A stretch of 64,000 nucleotides of DNA. It comes from Pseudomonadales bacterium. Its GTDB lineage: Bacteria; Pseudomonadota; Gammaproteobacteria; Pseudomonadales; Pseudohongiellaceae. The notes below the pieces were generated by a model. That model worked only from the letters and a program-made list of their open reading frames with translations, searched no databases and was not told the DNA's origin. Positions within the stretch are counted from its first letter, which is position 1. The number at the start of each line of letters is the position of its first letter. The DNA lies in the NCBI GenBank assembly GCA_022819645.1, contig JAJEGU010000006.1, positions 6,620 through 70,619 on the forward strand, written 5' to 3'. A program made the translations under genes and the position numbers. Positions 1,118 through 14,681 of this stretch are shown here, piece by piece.

Positions 1118-2106
1118 CTACTCAGACCGCGCCGCGCTCGAAAGCCCGTTGTCGGCGATAAGGCGGCTGTACAAGAGCCGTCTGCCGACAAACCGGGCCA
1201 CCGTCTCCCGCATCTGCTCGACCGTTCCTGATTCGCGCATGTTGTGACGTGCGACGAATTCCTGAACGTATCGGTTCAGGTGTTTCGGACTCATCTTGTG
1301 AAACGTGCCCTTGTGGGCGCGTTTCAGCATCGACCAGAACGATTCCACGCCGTTAGTATGCACCGGTCCGCGCACATATTCCATCAGTGAGTGAACGACG
1401 GTCTCGTGATCGTAGCCGTTGATCAGGTTGGCGAGCGACTGATAGGCACCTGATTCGTCGGTGTAGACGCGGGCGCCGTTCGCGGTGTGTTCCTCGACGA
1501 AGGGGATCAGCGTATCGGAATCCACGTTGCTGACGACTTCCGCCCGGACCTGATTCGTGTCGTGGTCCTGGATGCCGGCGACGGCTGTCTTGCCGACCGC
1601 GCCCCGGCCAGTTCTTTCCGCCTGGCGTTGCTCATGTTGGCCCGCTTGCCGCCAACGTAGGTCTCATCGACTTCAACCGGCCCGCCAAAATCGTCGCTCC
1701 CGCCGTCGCCTAGCCAGGCTTCCCGGATGCGGTGAATCATGAACCAGGCCGTTTTCTGCGTTACGCCGATGTCGCGATGAAGCTTCATGCTGGACACGCC
1801 TTTCAGATTCGTCAGGCACAGATAGATCGCGATGGCCCACTTGCGGAGCGGGATGCGAGAAGATTCAAGCAGCGTTCCGGTGCGGACGCTGAAGTACTTG
1901 CGGCAGTCGCGGCAGCGATAGGGCTGCGGCTTGCGGTTGGGGGTCTCGTGCGTGTTCGTGCCGCCACAATGACCGCAGCATCGCTTGCCGTCCCAGAAGA
2001 TTGACTCGAACCATTCGGCGGCGGCGGCTTCGGTGCTGAACTTGTCCATCAGTTGCATCAGCGTCATGCCGACTCGATGGGACTTTCCCGGGGCTGTCTG
2101 TGACAT
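1118..2106 (-). mobile_element. IS1595-family (ISXO2-like) transposase gene, split by a 1-nt frameshift; IS termini not determined
   Basis: ORF 1507..2106 has the N-terminal zinc-ribbon region (CCGHCGGTNTHE...YRCRDCRKYFSVRTGT) and ...VEVDETYVGGKRANMS. ORF 1118..1525 continues with DSDTLIPFVEEHT...VYTDESGAYQSL...HETVVHS..YVRGPVHTNGVESFWSMLKR. Reading one frame over from about 1600-1607 (a C/G run) gives GAVGKTAVAGIQDHDTNQVRAEVVSNVDSDTL, which joins the two halves. Confidence 0.85.
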
Positions 2107-2190: not shown

Positions 2191-2425
2191 ATCGGGATTT
2201 CTGAAGATGCCGGCAGGGCGTAACTGGGGGTCGTCGAGTACGGTTGACCTGCATCCCGACGGCGAGAGCATCTGGGTGGCGAGCGGTGCGGCGCCAATAT
2301 CAATGCCTGCGTGCAGAACCCCGATGTCAATCCCGTGATGCTTTTTGACAAGGACGGCAACATCATGCGCAGTTTCGGCGTCGGCTATATTTCCTGACCT
2401 CATGGCATTCACGTGGACCACGACG
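2191..2425 (+). pseudogene. fragment of an NHL-repeat beta-propeller gene (paralog of the CDS at 16022..17107)
   Basis: The fragment translates as LKMPAGRNWGSSSTVDLHPDGESIWVA, then after a 1-nt shift near 2279-2281 as ERCGANINACVQNPDVNPVMLFDKDGNIMRSFGVGYIS*PHGIHVDHD. The intact gene reads PLPDGREWGSTSAVDIDIDGESIWVAERCGSNSCALSDVDPVIKYDPEGNILTSFGGGMIIWPHGIHIDIDG. An in-frame TGA (2395-2397) replaces the Trp codon. The fragment is truncated at both ends. Confidence 0.7.
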
Positions 2426-2432
2426 CCAAGCT

Positions 2433-2768
2433 ATGCTTGGCGGCTGGACCGTACTCGACTTTGGCTGTGGTTGCACACGAGTGCTCGCGCACTTCTTCTG
2501 CGAAGATACGAAATGGAAGTTCACAGGTACTGATATTGACAGCGACGCGATAGTTTGGGTCCGGAAAAACTTTCCTGGTAAGGCTAGTTGGGACATCAAC
2601 GATAAACGACCTCCGCTCCCCTACGCCTCGCGGAGATTTGATGTTGTTTTTGCAATTTCTTTGTTCACTCACTTTGACGAGGATATGCAGTTTGATTGGT
2701 TGCAAGACCTCACGGAAAAGAACGCGCTTGTAATGCGCTATGGGCGTCCTGGGCCTGTACACTGGTAA
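2433..2768 (+). pseudogene. class I SAM-dependent methyltransferase fragment
   Basis: Motif I (VLDFGCGC) lies at the extreme N-terminus, followed by GTDIDSDAI and FDVVFAISLFTHF. The usual residues upstream of motif I and a full C-terminal half are missing. It abuts the NHL fragment. Confidence 0.45.
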
Positions 2769-3151
2769 TTCCGATCAAACCTCCAACGACTGCAAGCTTG
2801 TACAGGTTCATAATCTATGCAGTTACTTACTCCCTGAAGAGAATCGTATTCCCAAGCCGCACAACTGTTGTAGCTGTAAGAATTCACGCATTCGCTTGAT
2901 ATGAGGTTGAAAGCTTCGAAGCCTGTGAAGTTCCATGCCTGGCAACGTTCTAGCACAATGTGTTCGGATGCTGTCCAGTCAATTTCTGGACTCGATAGTG
3001 AGCTTGTCGCGCTCATGATTATCACGCCATTGCTACCGCCGCTAGCCACCGGAACCAGTAATTCTGAAGAGCCGCAATTGGCCAGACAGGCAGATGACCA
3101 AATAAGGGAAATCCTTAACACAGAGTGAAGGTGGATTATCTTGCCAGTCAT
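2738..3151 (-). CDS. hypothetical Cys-rich secreted protein
   Basis: A 137-aa ORF in a low-GC stretch with a hydrophobic N-terminus (LRISLIWSSACLANC) and several Cys. Its start overlaps the stop of the upstream ORF (ATGA at 3148-3151). Confidence 0.4.
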   Translation of the reverse strand: MTGKIIHLHSVLRISLIWSSACLANCGSSELLVPVASGGSNGVIIMSATSSLSSPEIDWTASEHIVLERCQAWNFTGFEAFNLISSECVNSYSYNSCAAWEYDSLQGVSNCIDYEPVQACSRWRFDRNYQCTGPGRP

Positions 3152-3531
3152 ATCGTGACACCCTTTGTGGCATTTAAGGCATTGATGATGTTCCTTTTGA
3201 AGTCTTCAAGAGGTTTTCGCTCCTCGCAACAGAGTTTGCGGTAGCTCATTGTGTCGGAACGATCCAAATGCCTCGCATTCTCAGTAACATGATGGATCGT
3301 CAGAGCATTCTCCATTTGTTTGAAACAGGGTATCGGCCCGTTGTCTCTCCGATAATTATTCATGACATATCCATCTGGATTGTCACGAAGCCAAAGTCGA
3401 TATTCTTCGTCTTTTTTGTAGAACTCAATGCAACATGGCGGTAGTTCAAATTGCCGGAGCATGGAATTCCCAAGTTTGATGGACTTAGGCTCGAATCCGC
3501 CCGGGGGCAAGGGAATTTTCATTGCGGTCAT
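3148..3531 (-). CDS. hypothetical protein
   Basis: A 127-aa ORF in low-GC sequence, translationally coupled to the ORF 2738..3151. No family recognised. Confidence 0.45.
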   Translation of the reverse strand: MTAMKIPLPPGGFEPKSIKLGNSMLRQFELPPCCIEFYKKDEEYRLWLRDNPDGYVMNNYRRDNGPIPCFKQMENALTIHHVTENARHLDRSDTMSYRKLCCEERKPLEDFKRNIINALNATKGVTI

Positions 3532-3703
3532 CGGTTTGTTGCCTCTCGCGCGAATCCGTCGGCAAGTATAGCAATTTGCCGCGAGACATGTTCAATGAGG
3601 ATGTCAAGCAGTAAAGGCGAACCGTACATAGAATTGAGTATTTACGGCGTCATCCACACGCCCCGCCAGCAGACGGAGACGCATCGAAGCCACAAACCCA
3701 CCT

Positions 3704-7638: not shown

Positions 7639-8964
7639 ATGAAGTCCACCCGCATTGGTTCGCGCATTTCCCTGATTGCCTGTATCGCCTTGTTGCTGGC
7701 CATGAGCCTGTTCTGGCTGATCAGCAGCTACCATACGCGGCAGGTGCTCCAGGCCCAGGCGGACCAGCTTGGCCCCACCATTGCGCGGCAGGCGGCGGAA
7801 TTGCTCGCCGAGCACGTCGAGGCCGATGACCTCATCAGTATCAATGTCATTCTGGAAGAATTGGCGGCGGACCCGGCGGTCATCGAAGCCAGCCTGCTCG
7901 ATGAACAGGGGCAAAGCGTGGCGGTGGCGGGCAACCCCAATACCGTATCCTCCATTGCCTTGCTCACGCGACCGATGCTGCGGGAGGAGTATTACACCCG
8001 CAGCATTCAGTTTTTCGGCGCCGATCAGGGTACCGTCAGCGTTGCCCTGGATCTCGGCTATCTGCAGGCAACCCTGAACGACAATCTGCTGCTTGTGGGC
8101 GGCGCCACCCTCGTCATGCTGCTGGTCACCTGGATTTTTCTCGCAATCTATTGCCAGGTCGCGCTTGGTTTTCCGCTCAATCTGCTGGGTTGGTCCCTGG
8201 GCAAGATCAGGCGCGGAGAAATCGCCGAGTGCCCCGAACCCACCGGGCATGATGAAGTGGCCAATCTTACCCGGCAATACAATGCCACGGCGAAGTTTCT
8301 GTCTCGCAACACTTTTCTGGACCCGCTCAACGAGGAATCCCGGGAGCCGGACTTGCCGGAAGGGCAAGCGGTGGATCTCAGCGTACTCGTAATTCGCATG
8401 AGCAACTATTTCTCGCTGTCCACCGCCATGGGCCGGGAACAGGTGCTGCAATTGCTCGATCGTTACTACGTCCTCGCCGGCCAGGTGGGCCGGATCTACA
8501 ATGGCCGCGTCTGTTACTGCCACGAAGAGGAGATTTTCATTGCCTTCGACCGCAGCGCAGCCAGCGAGGAACAAGCCTATTACGCCATCTGCGCGGGGCT
8601 GCTGTTTCTTCGCCTGATTCCCCACCTCAATAAGCTTCCCGGCGTCGCCGGCGCCAGTTTCGGCCTCGTCGCCCACAGCGGCAAGCTGGAGGCAAGACTG
8701 TATTCACCCATCAGCGGCGCCAACGACAGCCTGATCGGCGAGGCTCCCGATCAGGCGCGGCGCATCTGCAACGACTGTCCCGATAACGCCCTGCTGCTCA
8801 GCCCGGAGTGCTACCAGCTCGCCGGCGCCGACTCCCGGATCAACGCTGAAGCCTTCAACGACCCGGACACCGAAGACCCGGCCCTCATCGCCCTCGCCCC
8901 GCCCGAGGAACTCGACGAGCTCCTCAACCTCCAGGCCAGCCGCCTTGCGGCATGCTTAGACTGA
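7639..8964 (+). CDS. membrane signalling protein: N-terminal TM, periplasmic region, second TM, HAMP-like linker, degenerate GGDEF/class III cyclase-like domain
   Basis: The start MKSTRIGSRISLIACIALLLAMSLFWLI is chosen over the Arg/Pro-rich upstream extension of track ORF 7048. There is a HAMP-like segment (GHDEVANLTRQYNATAKFL). The C-terminal LSVLVIRMSNYFSLS...CHEEEIFIAF aligns with the nucleotidyl-cyclase/GGDEF fold but lacks the canonical Asp and GGDEF residues. Confidence 0.65.
   Translation: MKSTRIGSRISLIACIALLLAMSLFWLISSYHTRQVLQAQADQLGPTIARQAAELLAEHVEADDLISINVILEELAADPAVIEASLLDEQGQSVAVAGNPNTVSSIALLTRPMLREEYYTRSIQFFGADQGTVSVALDLGYLQATLNDNLLLVGGATLVMLLVTWIFLAIYCQVALGFPLNLLGWSLGKIRRGEIAECPEPTGHDEVANLTRQYNATAKFLSRNTFLDPLNEESREPDLPEGQAVDLSVLVIRMSNYFSLSTAMGREQVLQLLDRYYVLAGQVGRIYNGRVCYCHEEEIFIAFDRSAASEEQAYYAICAGLLFLRLIPHLNKLPGVAGASFGLVAHSGKLEARLYSPISGANDSLIGEAPDQARRICNDCPDNALLLSPECYQLAGADSRINAEAFNDPDTEDPALIALAPPEELDELLNLQASRLAACLD
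8886..8948 (+). repeat. direct repeat copy A (3' coding end of the CDS 7639..8964)
   Basis: A 63-nt stretch matches 10993..11055 at 53 of 63 positions by my hand alignment. It encodes IALAPPEELDELLNLQASRLA. Confidence 0.85.
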
Positions 8965-8969
8965 TGAAG

Positions 8970-8998
8970 TTGAATACTGTGCATACATACAGTATCTT
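8970..8998 (+). promoter_or_regulatory. sigma70-type promoter with an embedded LexA (SOS) box
   Basis: TTGAAT (8970-8975), a 17-nt spacer, then TATCTT (8993-8998). The spacer and flanks contain TACTGTGCATACATACAGTA (8975-8994). That sequence fits CTGT-N8-ACAG and the gammaproteobacterial consensus TACTGTATATATATACAGTA. It lies about 115 nt upstream of ATG 9110. Confidence 0.6.
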
Positions 8999-9109
8999 TC
9001 AGGGAAATTCGTTATTCACAAGATAATCACAGTGCGCTAACGGATTATCCTTTGACGAAGAGTTGAGTACAGCATAAATTGAATTTACTAATTGAGAGGA
9101 CTGGGTAGC

Positions 9110-9925
9110 ATGGGCGGACCATTGGGAAATGTGGACAGAATACAAGTAGCAACTGCTACGAGGCCAGATCGGAAGCTGAACACCCGCAAGGGAATTGCTG
9201 GGCGTGCATTACTTCGTACTGACCATGGCCCCAAACAAGGGTATCTAAAGCTTTTGGATGTCCAAGGGATAGCCAAGGAATCCCTGTGCTGGGCACTGTC
9301 CCGTTGTTTGGGATTGCCTATACCACAAGCATATTACGTCTATGCAAACCCGAATGACCTTTCAGAATTATCGCCTCGCAACAAATTTTGCTTAGCATTT
9401 GGAACGGAAGAAATGGAATTTTCGCGAGATCGAATTGAGAATAGAAAGGTAATTGAAAGCAAGTTATTTGAATGGGAGTTTTCATTACAATGTGGAGTTT
9501 TTGATGAATGGATTGTTAACGGGGACAGAATTCCTAATAACTTATTGTATTCAAGCCACGGGAAGTTTACTTTGATCGATCATGATGAAGTTTTGCCCAC
9601 GCATGCTTCCGTCGACAGTCATTCAATCTCAGAAGTTCTGAAAAGACTAAGTCAGAACAGCACTGAATCTGCGAAGCATAACTTGTTTGAAAGAACAAAG
9701 CTATTTGTTCTGAGGATTCAAAGAATTGACTGGGAAAGGATTCGCCAAATGATTATAGTAGAAAATGTACCTGAAGTTCAATGGGATATGTTTATGGGCC
9801 ACAAAAATTTCCTTATGCAACGCGCAAAAATTTTACCCGAAGTGCTGCATTTAAGTCTAGGAATTTCACAAACCGAGCTATTAATAGGTGATGATACTCA
9901 ACAAGGGTGGGAGAAAATCCAATGA
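9110..9925 (+). CDS. HipA-like / PI3-4-kinase-fold protein kinase (putative)
   Basis: RBS GAGAGGA (9094-9100) precedes ATG 9110. The motif FDEWIVNGDRIPNNLLYSSHGKFTLIDHDEVL fits the catalytic loop (DRxxxN) and the metal-binding IDH(D/G) of the HipA-like kinase fold. Upstream are QGYLKLL (candidate ATP Lys) and ESLCWALSRCLGLPIPQAYYV. The sequence is AT-rich. Confidence 0.6.
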   Translation: MGGPLGNVDRIQVATATRPDRKLNTRKGIAGRALLRTDHGPKQGYLKLLDVQGIAKESLCWALSRCLGLPIPQAYYVYANPNDLSELSPRNKFCLAFGTEEMEFSRDRIENRKVIESKLFEWEFSLQCGVFDEWIVNGDRIPNNLLYSSHGKFTLIDHDEVLPTHASVDSHSISEVLKRLSQNSTESAKHNLFERTKLFVLRIQRIDWERIRQMIIVENVPEVQWDMFMGHKNFLMQRAKILPEVLHLSLGISQTELLIGDDTQQGWEKIQ

Positions 9926-10782
9926 GGTTTGGTTTTCCTGATCCACCCAATTTTGGGTTCTCTTGGCGAAATTTATTTGTCGAACCTGTACCTTTTTCCG
10001 GAGAAAAAATTTCAGTTGCAGCTATTGTTAAAACTGATGACGGGACTCTTATCGTTCCCAAGTTCGTATCGAGGCATAAATTTCGAAGCTTGTTCGGTGC
10101 TAGATTTAGTGCCCATGTTTCAGATATGCTCGAAATATGTATTGAATGCGCTGAAGAGCATTTCCAGAAAAACCCGATATACCTTGACTGGAAGCCACCG
10201 ATTAGCAGTTTCCATATTGGAGAGACAGAACACTCAATGGCAGTGGACTTGGAAGAAGCAGTATTGATAGTTGGGAAGTGCTGCTCTTCTATTTTTGTTT
10301 CAGAGAAAACTAGCCAAACCGCATTTCCGGGACTGAAAAAGTTACCTCCATTCCATAGGATTTGGGAATCCGAGATTAGATCGAGTGTAGGAATGCATCG
10401 TTCTTCCTTTGAAATCAATTTTGACAAATGTGTATATTTGAAAGAGGGTGGCGTTCGATTAAATTTCGGTTTTCTTTCTGAAAAATATGTTGCACAGTTT
10501 GAAGCAGTATCTAAACCTTCATCACTCCAAAGCGCTCTAGTTCGAGCTCAAGCTAAACTTTGGCAGCTTGATCTTCTAAGAAATGAGAAAGATATTTTCG
10601 GAGTTCCGAATTGCGAGTTGCTTCTTGGGTTGCCACAATCGGAGAAAGCAGGAAGAAACAAGACGATTATGGAGTTCGTGGAAGAACTGAAGTACGAAGC
10701 ATCGAAAAGAGAATTGAAAGTTTACACAGCTAGTTCACCTACTGAAGCGGCAATGCATCTAATTGAAAAAGCTGCGGCTTGA
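9922..10782 (+). CDS. unknown-function partner protein (N-terminus DUF3037-like)
   Basis: ATG 9922 overlaps the kinase stop (ATGA at 9922-9925), with RBS GGTGGGAG 8 nt upstream. The protein is 286 aa. The N-terminus WRNLFVEPVPFSGEKISVAAIVKTDDG recalls the opening pattern of DUF3037. I found no catalytic motif. Confidence 0.55.
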   Translation: MRFGFPDPPNFGFSWRNLFVEPVPFSGEKISVAAIVKTDDGTLIVPKFVSRHKFRSLFGARFSAHVSDMLEICIECAEEHFQKNPIYLDWKPPISSFHIGETEHSMAVDLEEAVLIVGKCCSSIFVSEKTSQTAFPGLKKLPPFHRIWESEIRSSVGMHRSSFEINFDKCVYLKEGGVRLNFGFLSEKYVAQFEAVSKPSSLQSALVRAQAKLWQLDLLRNEKDIFGVPNCELLLGLPQSEKAGRNKTIMEFVEELKYEASKRELKVYTASSPTEAAMHLIEKAAA

Positions 10783-10844
10783 AGAACCTGCGCTAGTAAA
10801 ACAAGGTAATCACATACCTAACCCAAATATTGCACGAGCCCATT

Positions 10845-10869
10845 GATTCGGCCCTGAATCGGTGTTTTT
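10845..10869 (+). terminator. weak intrinsic-terminator-like hairpin after the island operon
   Basis: GATTC (10845-10849), loop GGCCCT, GAATC (10856-10860), then GGTGTTTTT. The stem is only 5 bp, so this is tentative. Confidence 0.25.
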
Positions 10870-10992
10870 CGCGCCTTGCCGAGGCGTGACGGTTTCGGCC
10901 TGACCGAAACGGGACCAGAGTTTCCCTTGTCCGCTTCCTTTCGGGTGGGGCAGCCGCTAATCCCATAATCGATCGTTCCTGCAACGGTGTCC

Positions 10993-11063
10993 CATCGCTC
11001 TCGCCCCACCCGAAGAGCTCGATGAGCTACTCAACCTGCAAGCCACTCGCCTTGCCACCCGGT
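10993..11063 (+). pseudogene. displaced duplicate of the 3' end of the CDS 7639..8964 (direct repeat copy B)
   Basis: Reads IALAPPEELDELLNLQATRLATR* in frame. The matching part, 10993..11055, is 53/63 identical to 8886..8948. Eight of the differences are synonymous third-position changes and one codon is changed (Ser to Thr). No upstream coding continuation exists. Confidence 0.75.
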
Positions 11064-11200
11064 AATCGGACTTCCCGGTGACCCCGCTCCGCCGCCCGCC
11101 TGTCATCCAAATGTGAACCACGGGCCGAACCCCCGGGCACTTGTGAGACTGGTGTAGAATGATCCGCTATTTTCACGGGATTGCTGGAGGAGTTTCATCG

Positions 11201-12681: not shown

Positions 12682-14151
12682 TCAGTCGGCGCCCGCCACC
12701 TCAAGCAGTACGCGGTAGATCATTTCGGTTCCCTCGGCGAGGGATTGCACCGAAACCCGCTCATCATTGCCATGCATGCGGGAAAGATCATCCTGGTCGA
12801 TGGGGTAGGGATAAATGCCGTACACCGGAACGTCCCGGTTACGCCAGGCGCTGGCGTCGGTGCCGGCCTGAAACAGATAGGAAGTGACCAGGGCTTCGGG
12901 GTATTGCTCCCGGGCGGAGTCCGCCAGTGCCTGGTACAACTCGGTGTCTTCGGGAGACGGCTGCTGCGTGGATCTTTGCTGCAGTCTTGCCAGCGCCTCC
13001 TGCTGGCTTTCGCCGGCGCTGGTGGAAATCTCCACCGAGATGGCCGGATCGGCGGTTACCCGGCGGATTTCCCTGATAAAGGCCGCAACGTCCGTGCCCG
13101 GAATCAGGCGAAAATTGACCAGTACGCTGGCGGTGCCGGGAATGACATTGGTGCGGAAGCCGCCCTCGATTATCACCGGCGCCACGGTATTGCGCATGAA
13201 GGCCCGCAGCAGCGGATCAACGCCGATGGCCCGGTCGGCCTGGGCCACCCGGGCCGCATCGGTTCCCGCAAGCAGGTCTTCAAACCAGGTGCGTTCGGGC
13301 TCCCCGGCGGTCTCGGCCAGAGTCTGGAAGAACTGCCGCGTAATCGGAATCAGTTGTATGCCGGTGTCGTGGCGCGAGAGTTTGTCCAGCGCCCGGGCGA
13401 GGGCGAAGATGGCATTGTCCGGGCGCGGCATGGACGAATGGATGCTGTGCCCGGAGGCGGTGATGCGCAGGGTAAGGAAGAACTTGTCGGCGGTGGAAAT
13501 GCTTACGTAGCGCACCTCGTCGGAATCACGGCGCTTGATGATCCAGCCGCCTTCGTTCAGCGCGAACTCGGCGTCGATCAGGTGCCAGTGGTCCCGGGCC
13601 AGCCAGCCCGTGCCGTAGCTGCCGCCCTCTTCATCGGCTTCCGCCAGAAAGATCACGTCCCGGGCCAGGGGAACCTCATCCCTGGCAAGCCGCATGACGG
13701 CTTCGGCGAATACCGCAAGCCCGCCCTTGAAATCTATCGCTCCCCGGCCATGGACATAGCCATTGACGATATCGCCGGCGAATGGTTCCTGGGTCCACAA
13801 GTCGCGCTCCACTCCCACCACATCGGCATGGGCGGCGAGCAGCAGGGGCCTTTTGGAACCGTCGCCGCGCAGCCTGGCGATGAAATGCGCCTTGCCGGGA
13901 ACGGGCGTCTCGATAATGGATACTTCAAATCCGAGCGTCTCGAACCTGGGCCGTAGCAGTTCGGCCAACTCGCCTTCATTGCCCGGTGGGTTGGAAGTGT
14001 CCACCCAAATGAGCTCCCGCAGCAGTTCCGCCGCGGGATTGGTTTGTGTTTGGGCCTGGGCCTGCAGGGTGAGCACGCTCAGGGCGGCGATTGCAAGGTA
14101 TCCGGTGATTTTCATGATGGGACTCGGCGGAAAAAACTGAATATGTTTCAT
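12682..14151 (-). CDS. secreted M20/M25/M40-family metallopeptidase
   Basis: Motifs LLLAAHADVV, GRGAIDFKGG and LAEADEEGG match the M20 metal-binding pattern (H, D, EE). There is a signal peptide MKITGYLAIAALSVLTLQAQA. The first ATG overlaps the upstream stop (ATGA at 14148-14151). An alternative start is at 14115. Confidence 0.85.
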   Translation of the reverse strand: MKHIQFFPPSPIMKITGYLAIAALSVLTLQAQAQTQTNPAAELLRELIWVDTSNPPGNEGELAELLRPRFETLGFEVSIIETPVPGKAHFIARLRGDGSKRPLLLAAHADVVGVERDLWTQEPFAGDIVNGYVHGRGAIDFKGGLAVFAEAVMRLARDEVPLARDVIFLAEADEEGGSYGTGWLARDHWHLIDAEFALNEGGWIIKRRDSDEVRYVSISTADKFFLTLRITASGHSIHSSMPRPDNAIFALARALDKLSRHDTGIQLIPITRQFFQTLAETAGEPERTWFEDLLAGTDAARVAQADRAIGVDPLLRAFMRNTVAPVIIEGGFRTNVIPGTASVLVNFRLIPGTDVAAFIREIRRVTADPAISVEISTSAGESQQEALARLQQRSTQQPSPEDTELYQALADSAREQYPEALVTSYLFQAGTDASAWRNRDVPVYGIYPYPIDQDDLSRMHGNDERVSVQSLAEGTEMIYRVLLEVAGAD

Positions 14152-14585
14152 TTTGCGGACACGCGGATGCCGAAAGGATCGATTTCGATCAGCACCCGGG
14201 ACATTTCAGTGATGTCCACCGGCGCGGCTTCCGAGGCTTCGTGTTCCGCGAAAACCAGCACCCGGATGGCTTCCCCGGCGCGTTTCGGCAGGGTCGGGCG
14301 GGCTGAATCAAAGCCCTGGGGGATGAAGGTGCTCACCAGATCAAAGGCTTCGCCCAACTCCCGGGTCAGTGACCGGCGATTGGCGTACCAGGCAGATTTG
14401 GTTGCGGGAATTTGCGCGGCGGTAGCCTCGTCATAGAGAAACAGCACATCGATGCCGGTAATTTCGATGGCGTTGGGGTCAAGACGCGAACGAATCAGGA
14501 TGGATTCAACGGCTGCGGCAGCCTGGGCCGAGCAACAGATCAGCAGCAGAACCGTCAGCGCTTTTTGCAGCATTGCCAGCTTCAC
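14148..14585 (-). CDS. secreted hypothetical protein
   Basis: 145 aa with a signal peptide MKLAMLQKALTVLLLICCSAQAAAA. It is coupled to the downstream M20 gene. No family recognised. Confidence 0.55.
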   Translation of the reverse strand: MKLAMLQKALTVLLLICCSAQAAAAVESILIRSRLDPNAIEITGIDVLFLYDEATAAQIPATKSAWYANRRSLTRELGEAFDLVSTFIPQGFDSARPTLPKRAGEAIRVLVFAEHEASEAAPVDITEMSRVLIEIDPFGIRVSAK

Positions 14586-14681
14586 TCGGAGGTTCGCAAT
14601 GGTCCGTCGGAATCCCGCGCCACAGGTTCCGGGAATATGGCGCTGGGCATGCAGAGCAACAGCGCATGGTGTGAACAGGCC

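Follow-up and report, generated by a model that had tools for sequence, protein, structure and literature searches.

The question raised by this locus is whether a predicted LexA (SOS) box standing ahead of a two-gene kinase operon is a functional operator and, if so, whether the operon is expressed only in response to DNA damage. The box lies in a 64,000-nt stretch of DNA (hereafter the window, meaning the whole stretch that was analysed), for which an earlier note had described a canonical LexA box in the promoter of the kinase operon and had concluded that the kinase module stays silent as long as no DNA damage occurs. The description of the box and its promoter context stood up in the present analysis; the conclusion about silence did not. 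The features needed at the outset are the following:

7639-8964, plus strand: upstream SMP_2/YtjB-like gene
8975-8994, no strand assigned: LexA (SOS) box TACTGTGCATACATACAGTA, 22.7 bits, found at the same relative position in nine loci
9110-9925, plus strand: HipA-like Ser/Thr kinase gene, 271 aa, Pfam HipA_2 (PF20613)
9922-10782, plus strand: partner gene, 286 aa, not assigned to any known family; start codon and kinase stop codon overlap in ATGA

Both 6-nt arms of the box are perfect (TACTGT-GCATACAT-ACAGTA at 8975-8994), as expected of a canonical site of the gammaproteobacterial type, for which the consensus is TACTG(TA)5CAGTA (PMC8265657), and the genomes containing homologs of the kinase are nearly all from Gammaproteobacteria. 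The box was correctly placed just after the upstream stop codon, with the TGA at 8962-8964 followed by 10 nt and then the box, and the ATG at 9110 comes 115 nt past the end of the box. Scoring with a LexA matrix for the host clade had been proposed as a check; the matrix used here was symmetrised and derived from 23 LexA operators of E. coli. The training sites were only partly verified: the recA site was confirmed in 5300 E. coli genomes, and the dinG site is quoted in PMC8265657. On this E. coli-based matrix, from which the LexA motif of the host may differ, the box scored 22.7 bits, inside the range of the true E. coli operators used for training (13.1-26.7 bits), and the next-best site in the window scored 10.9 bits. 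The loose pattern CTGT-N8-ACAG occurs once in the window, where 0.34 occurrences are expected, and at least one occurrence was present in 28 of 100 shuffled sequences; since this pattern is not significant by itself, the scoring was based on the full 20-mer. The chance of such a score is 3.6e-8 per site at 40% GC, equivalent to approximately 0.002 expected sites per 64 kb. The matrix scan identified no second SOS box in the window, which agrees with the view that this is its only full LexA box. Judged by its letters, the 20-mer at 8975-8994 is a genuine-looking predicted LexA site.

The box was then considered across related loci. Approximately 480 kb of sequence fetched around homologs of the kinase and the partner was scanned, and every site of at least 20 bits sits 135-220 nt upstream of a kinase homolog. 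Nine independent loci contain such a box, compared to at most 0.14 sites expected by chance:

Window: box 22.7 bits
L004: box 28.5 bits; kinase 54% identical to the window kinase
L006: box 25.9 bits; kinase 48% identical to the window kinase
L009: box 24.8 bits
L051: box 26.6 bits
L050: box 23.1 bits; right arm mutated to ACAA
L013: box 23.5 bits; distant homolog (37-39% identity) from another lineage
L015: box 24.3 bits; distant homolog (37-39% identity) from another lineage
L028: box 27.8 bits; distant homolog (37-39% identity) from another lineage

Alignment of these boxes shows almost no variation in the CTGT and ACAG arms, and a central 8-nt stretch that is variable yet AT-rich; fixed arms around a free, AT-rich centre is the pattern expected of a LexA site. 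The 29-nt segment comprising the box and the overlapping promoter-like hexamers described below is 79-93% identical between relatives, compared to 56-76% for their coding DNA. Similarly, L013 and L028 are 91% identical from the box to the proximal promoter, 72-75% in their coding sequences and 47% in the stretch directly preceding the box. A 19.2-bit site in L025 was dismissed as a second SOS site, as it falls inside a 1073-aa ORF. Most members of the kinase family contain no box at all. On a tree of the partner proteins the box is missing in a distant superclade and occurs on either side of the basal split within the superclade containing the window, a distribution that suggests an ancestral operator lost several times later; a decayed copy is seen in L023 (TACTGTACATACATACAAAA, with ACAA for ACAG). 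This cross-locus conservation effectively refutes the idea that the palindrome arose by chance in foreign DNA of high AT content. The island is indeed AT-rich and the loose pattern is expected 0.34 times per window, but the full 20-mer is expected only about 0.002 times per window even at 40% GC, and nine independent loci have a box at the same position.

The position of the box relative to foreign DNA is informative as well. The operon lies in an insertion of about 2.1 kb, bounded as follows:

8886-8948, plus strand: left direct repeat, formed by the SMP_2/YtjB-like gene's native 3' end; the insertion junction follows 8948
8949-10992, plus strand: inserted low-GC cassette, containing the regulatory region, kinase gene, partner gene and terminator
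10841-10874, plus strand: terminator-like hairpin followed by a T-run (scanner), located after the partner gene
10993-11066, plus strand: right direct repeat, the displaced and diverged 3' end of SMP_2, including its stop codon
From about 11201: nhaD

The GC content drops from approximately 61% to approximately 41% between roughly 8950 and 10900, with the box at the break. The repeat pair (8886-8948 and 10993-11055) measures 63 nt and is 84% identical; the same flanking repeats are present in L004 and L009, with repeat lengths ranging from 30 to 63 nt. Between 8850 and 11200, the hairpin at 10841-10874 is the sole terminator-like site on the plus strand. L154, a relative that comes from a sister sample, aligns collinearly with the window (93-95% DNA identity) and does not contain window positions 8952-11113, so that its SMP_2 gene is directly followed by nhaD; the match to the window runs to 8948 and then breaks off. 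Empty sites were also found in L155 and L157, and no LexA-like site is present at the empty locus of any of the three. Independent insertions with unrelated neighbours occur beside an HlyIII gene (L013) and beside a MazG-like gene (L028), where the homology starts 2-4 nt before the LexA box and stops at the stop codon of the partner gene. Since the homology edge falls just before the box and the empty sites are free of it, the box belongs to the transferred unit; on these comparisons, it is the leading edge of a mobile kinase cassette. No integrase was found inside the cassette, and one possibility is that it moves by Campbell-type integration of a circle excised via recombination between the repeats. 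A phage-borne origin was considered and rejected: seven viral contigs contain kinases that are 28-29% identical together with the partner gene, and none of them has a LexA box.

A boundary position could also mean that the palindrome is a recombination site at the cassette edge, or the operator of another protein (e.g., the partner), rather than a LexA site. The palindrome lies within 27 nt of the left junction, independent insertions start just before it, and the cassette has no integrase that would account for its movement. However, a match to the LexA matrix of this quality has a p of about 1e-8, the arms are fixed while the centre is free in the manner of LexA sites, and an identical arrangement of hexamer, box and hexamer drives lexA elsewhere (see below). 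In addition, nothing related to the box was found at the cassette's right end, and it is the target gene's 3' end, not the palindrome, that forms the bounding repeats. We therefore regard this explanation as very improbable, and treat the palindrome in what follows as a predicted LexA operator.

Several other observations concern the insertion site and its surroundings. In L003 (52-3112), NhaD is 99% identical to that of the window and the cassette genes only 88%, and an additional 437-aa minus-strand ORF with no Pfam match lies between the partner gene and nhaD; from this locus, the cassette site looks like a variable hotspot. An M20/M28 peptidase gene located downstream of nhaD (approximately 12821-14681) is missing in L154 and present in L006, L050, L051 and L157. 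In L028 (2093-4668; Pseudohongiella), the cassette lies beside the MazG-like gene and a gene for a 730-aa fusion protein combining a GIY-YIG domain, a Schlafen-type helicase and a LexA-like S24 peptidase domain; the neighbourhood looks like a defence island, and the fusion protein may sense RecA activity. Elsewhere in the window, an IS1595-family transposase at 1118-2106 (minus strand) is divided into two ORFs, with an N-terminal zinc ribbon and a C-terminal DDE domain, and is probably a frameshifted pseudogene. A second low-GC patch (2400-3600; 46-50% GC) contains three small overlapping minus-strand ORFs, of which 2738-3151 encodes a YecR-like lipoprotein; Pfam gave no match for the others.

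The box had been described as occupying the spacer of a promoter, and the two hexamers concerned form a predicted distal promoter, P1:

8970-8975, plus strand: -35-like hexamer TTGAAT of P1, read from the sequence; shares one base with the box
8993-8998, plus strand: -10-like hexamer TATCTT of P1; overlaps the last two bases of the box

The positions given for the box and for the 17-nt gap between TTGAAT and TATCTT proved accurate, with the spacer at 8976-8992. Compared with the σ70 consensus, P1 has 8 of 12 matching positions and so falls one short of the threshold of the promoter scanner. TTGAAT occupies the same place relative to the box in L004, L006, L009 and L051, and TTGTAT does so in L015; the -10 hexamer at the matching position in the relatives is TATTCT or TATTAT. 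The geometry is thus identical in six diverged loci including the window: the -35 hexamer begins 5 nt before the box, the spacer is 17 nt, and the -10 hexamer begins at box position 19. L013 and L028 have no P1-like hexamer pair, though a strong box is kept. No terminator-like site was detected by the scanner between P1 and the kinase gene.

The same layout recurs at recognised SOS genes. A metagenome scan with the pattern TTGAATACTG-N10-CAGTATYYT returned 94 matches, of which 37 had the full core and a downstream ORF. Fourteen of the 37 precede lexA (confirmed by LexA_DNA_bind and Peptidase_S24 domains), and these 14 lexA genes have exactly TTGAAT-box-TATTYT; a further eight precede a phage-type integrase, two a SulA/ImuA-like gene and two a radical-SAM gene. 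No further kinase cassettes were found among the 94 matches. The E. coli recA promoter has the same succession of hexamer, box and hexamer (5300 genomes). Because the lexA and recA promoters share its layout, P1 is a credible SOS promoter, and the claim that the box lies between -35-like and -10-like hexamers is upheld by the six loci, the metagenome lexA genes and E. coli recA alike. The upstream gene is co-directional and stops short of the box, so the box can serve no gene set other than the kinase operon. Service to a divergent neighbour was rejected, given that the upstream genes vary (HlyIII, MazG-like, ankyrin, SMP_2) and the homology starts at the box. As a separate observation, TTGAAT-LexA box-TATTTT precedes a tyrosine integrase gene (Int_N and Phage_integrase domains) in L139, L063, L079, L084, L087, L099, L101 and L108, which suggests that SOS-controlled integrases occur in environmental bacteria.

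A second predicted promoter, P2, lies between the box and the kinase gene:

9012-9051, plus strand: operator-like repeat array with TTATTCACA, ATAATCACAG and the inverted GGATTATC beside the P2 -35 hexamer
9052-9080, plus strand: P2 promoter, with -35 TTGACG (9052-9057), a 17-nt spacer and -10 TAAATT (9075-9080)
9094-9100, plus strand: ribosome-binding site GAGAGGA, 9 nt before the ATG at 9110, read from the sequence

P2 starts approximately 60 nt downstream of the box and is a scanner match, with 9 of 12 consensus positions compared to 8 of 12 for P1. It scores 8-10 of 12 in every box-bearing locus, and it is also present in relatives that have no LexA box (L017, L022, L024, L026 and L030). 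Across 13 aligned leaders, box-free ones included, TTGAC is invariant (13 of 13), followed by a 16-17-nt spacer and a TAnAnT -10 hexamer. The leaders share a conserved block, TTATCCACAG...CACAGG...TTGTGC, in which TTATCCACAG and CACAGG are direct repeats about 11 nt apart ahead of P2 and the inverted TTGTGC adjoins the -35 hexamer; repeats and P2 are seen together in the window and in L013, L015, L017, L022, L023, L024, L026, L028 and L030. The unit TTATTCACA at 9012-9020 fits the DnaA-box consensus TTATNCACA, of which it is the sole match in the window, and the perfect DnaA-box 9-mer TTATCCACA occurs in seven relatives. RNAalifold predicted no conserved structure for the 13 leaders (0 pairs), and Rfam produced no match to the leader; the leader signals are therefore likely to act at the DNA level. 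No tRNA genes were found, and a sub-threshold Rfam snoRNA match inside the kinase gene was taken as chance.

The existence of P2 changes how the box is to be read. Since it lies approximately 100 nt upstream of the predicted P2 start, LexA bound at 8975-8994 cannot occlude P2. The statement that the box lies within the promoter of the kinase operon is therefore only partly borne out: the box overlaps the predicted P1 but is outside the stronger and more widely conserved P2. The further claim that the kinase module is silent until damage is unsupported, because P2 is nearer to the gene, is the better match to the σ70 consensus and is not overlapped by LexA. With P2 outside LexA control, the SOS response would raise expression rather than switch it on from silence. 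It is probable that damage boosts expression of the cassette, and unlikely that damage is its only on-switch. The connection with prophage induction or phage infection drawn in the earlier note is speculative.

It is also conceivable that LexA on the box acts upon P2, together with a protein bound to the repeat array in co-repression or a higher-order complex, rather than by occluding P1. The distance from box to P2 is fixed within each clade, with the -35 hexamer starting at +76/77 or +65/67, two values about one helical turn apart, and the box is kept in L013 and L028 in the absence of a P1-like pair. Joint control by LexA and an element's own regulator is common on mobile elements (Fornelos et al. 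2016, as cited in PMC8265657). The 11-nt difference between the two distances is, however, equally well accounted for by one extra repeat unit, and the box centre precedes the predicted start site of P2 by approximately 90-102 nt, beyond the normal range of a repressor. The agreement of P1 with real lexA and recA promoters also argues against this explanation, which we consider unlikely.

A related consideration is that, with P2 the better conserved promoter and the box outside it, LexA may be of little weight for total expression. In its strongest form, this would make the box a relic without present regulatory effect, bound by LexA now or only in the past, and leave P2 as the sole working promoter. 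The wider conservation of P2 fits such a relic, as do the losses of the box in several lineages and its decay to ACAA in L023 and L050. Against it, the box segment exceeds coding DNA in conservation among relatives whose proteins are 48-54% identical, and the decayed box of L050 accompanies a deleted kinase gene, as expected if the box persists only as long as the kinase works. On balance, a relic appears quite unlikely, and P1 under LexA control alongside P2 is the interpretation retained here.

The proteins encoded by the cassette belong to a rare family. The kinase matches PF20613 (E = 8.4e-10, 38.7 bits with a cut-off of 27), its homologs have precomputed PF20613 assignments, and a search of 5.8 billion proteins returned 18 homologs. 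The catalytic residues K47, D139-R-x3-N144 and D157, corresponding to the ATP-binding lysine, the catalytic loop D-x4-N and the Mg-binding aspartate, are invariant in all 17 aligned kinase sequences. Sequence searches of the PDB identified no solved relative. The structural model (pLDDT 77.6) matches CtkA (E = 3e-5) and HipA 3tpt (E = 9e-4), both with a probability of 1.00 and with moderate TM-scores of 0.41-0.47. The kinase gene is directly followed by the partner gene in 45 of the 49 fetched loci; in the other four, the contig ends or no partner is detectable. For the partner, no match was found in Pfam, NCBIfam or PADLOC, and none of 55 partner homologs has a precomputed Pfam domain. Its model is confident (pLDDT 85.7), and neither fold nor sequence searches gave a significant PDB match; one domain is weakly similar to restriction-endonuclease-like folds. 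In side results of the model searches, the partner matched unnamed viral proteins over the full length (BFVD A0A516KZK0, E = 9.5e-19; A0A516KTX2, E = 3.4e-8) and, weakly, a DUF1828-containing phage protein and XPF/Mus81-type nuclease domains.

The kinase gene has decayed beside an intact partner gene in three loci: it is largely deleted in L050 (2527-3000), where the box arm is also mutated to ACAA; frameshifted in L051 (2498-3004), at 2.6x long-read coverage and thus possibly through sequencing error; and split in L052 (2293-3004). This pattern fits a kinase that is toxic, as would be expected by analogy with toxin-antitoxin modules.

We consider it likely that the operon has tandem promoters, consisting of a distal, SOS-inducible P1 controlled by LexA and a proximal P2 independent of LexA, and that the box is a functional operator carried on a mobile cassette. 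According to this model, LexA bound to the box at 8975-8994, inside the P1 spacer, would block RNA polymerase; after DNA damage, RecA-stimulated self-cleavage of LexA would free P1, and transcripts would run for approximately 105 nt into the kinase-partner operon. P2, uncovered by LexA, probably gives basal expression, and is perhaps controlled by the module's own proteins through the repeat array, as in many toxin-antitoxin operons. DnaA is an alternative candidate for binding the array, because TTATCCACA is found in seven relatives and TTATTCACA in the window. The kinase would act as a toxin restrained by its obligate partner. It is tempting to go further and view the locus as an integrase-free mobile cassette of approximately 2 kb that has its own LexA operator as its 5' boundary and responds to SOS induction with kinase-mediated growth arrest or abortive infection, its uncharacterised HipA-like kinase and novel-fold partner being a remote analogue of the anti-phage system HipAD, and with the second operator (the perfect DnaA-box 9-mer TTATCCACA in seven relatives) perhaps also coupling expression to replication status; this extended scenario is speculative, and we hold it to be doubtful.

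Comparison with known systems helps to place these features. As in the E. coli recA promoter and in lexA promoters, the spacer that separates a TTGA-type -35 hexamer from a TA...T -10 hexamer is filled by the 20-bp TACTGT-N8-ACAGTA, which shares its outer bases with both. The E. coli recA box, too, lies directly past the stop codon of an upstream gene read in the same direction, pncC. In contrast to recA and lexA, the genes served here are a horizontally acquired kinase and its partner instead of DNA-repair genes, and a second promoter not covered by LexA intervenes between box and gene.

SOS toxin-antitoxin modules (yafNO, tisAB/istR, symER and hokE of E. coli, and higBA of Caulobacter and of IncC plasmids) are similar in being small, mobile, two-part modules with a LexA box in the promoter region, and the present module likewise comprises two adjacent genes, joined by the ATGA overlap, with a LexA box 115 nt upstream. 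SOS boxes on toxin-antitoxin modules and mobile elements, often with a co-regulator encoded by the element, are well established, and joint control by LexA and the module's own proteins has been proposed for IncC higBA (PMC8265657). The box of IncC higBA is non-canonical, whereas that of the kinase cassette is canonical and strongly conserved. In addition, a HipA-like kinase takes the place of an RNase or membrane peptide as the putative toxin here, and the kinase gene comes first.

Among kinase systems, HipAD (also DS-6 or PDC-M66; a HipA-like kinase with a DUF3037 protein) is a validated anti-phage system in which deletion of the kinase abolishes defence and deletion of the partner is toxic (PMC12548924; PMC13092281). 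It resembles the present module in being a two-gene operon, where the gene of a HipA-family kinase precedes that of a similarly sized partner. However, assignment of the module to PDC-M66, or of the partner to DUF3037, was rejected for want of any Pfam, NCBIfam or PADLOC match: neither DUF3037 nor DUF1829 was detected in 16 diverse partners at E values up to 1, and neither kinase nor partner matched the PADLOC models at E values up to 0.01. The module may thus work like HipAD at most by analogy, and PMC12548924 and PMC13092281 make no mention of LexA control of HipAD.

The hipBA operon of E. coli is similar in having a kinase with a HipA-like fold and in its autoregulation, with operator repeats close to the promoter, and the kinase-partner module may be autoregulated as well. 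E. coli HipA is approximately 440 aa with an N-terminal domain, whereas the kinase here is a 271-aa core; HipB is a small HTH antitoxin encoded upstream, whereas the partner here is a 286-aa non-HTH protein encoded downstream. E. coli hipBA is not known to have a LexA box. The cassette also resembles mobile elements that borrow LexA (the CTX phage, colicin operons and integron integrases), reportedly reviewed by Fornelos et al. 2016, in placing a host LexA box on horizontally moving DNA, in having a second operator beside it and in the potential of the element to sense host DNA damage. It differs from them as a minimal 2-kb cassette without integrase, replication or structural genes.

The principle is not new, since both SOS-inducible toxin-antitoxin modules and mobile DNA with LexA boxes are already well known. 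What is new is that a rare, unstudied kinase-partner family takes a strongly conserved canonical SOS operator with it between genomes; no paper linking a LexA box to a HipA-type kinase was found in the literature searched. The tandem arrangement of P1 and P2 illustrates that a perfect SOS box near a gene need not mean silence before damage. If the proposed regulation is confirmed, induction with mitomycin C would provide a simple handle on the kinase-partner family, and the family would constitute a kinase-based addition to the modules of dormancy or defence that are triggered by DNA damage.
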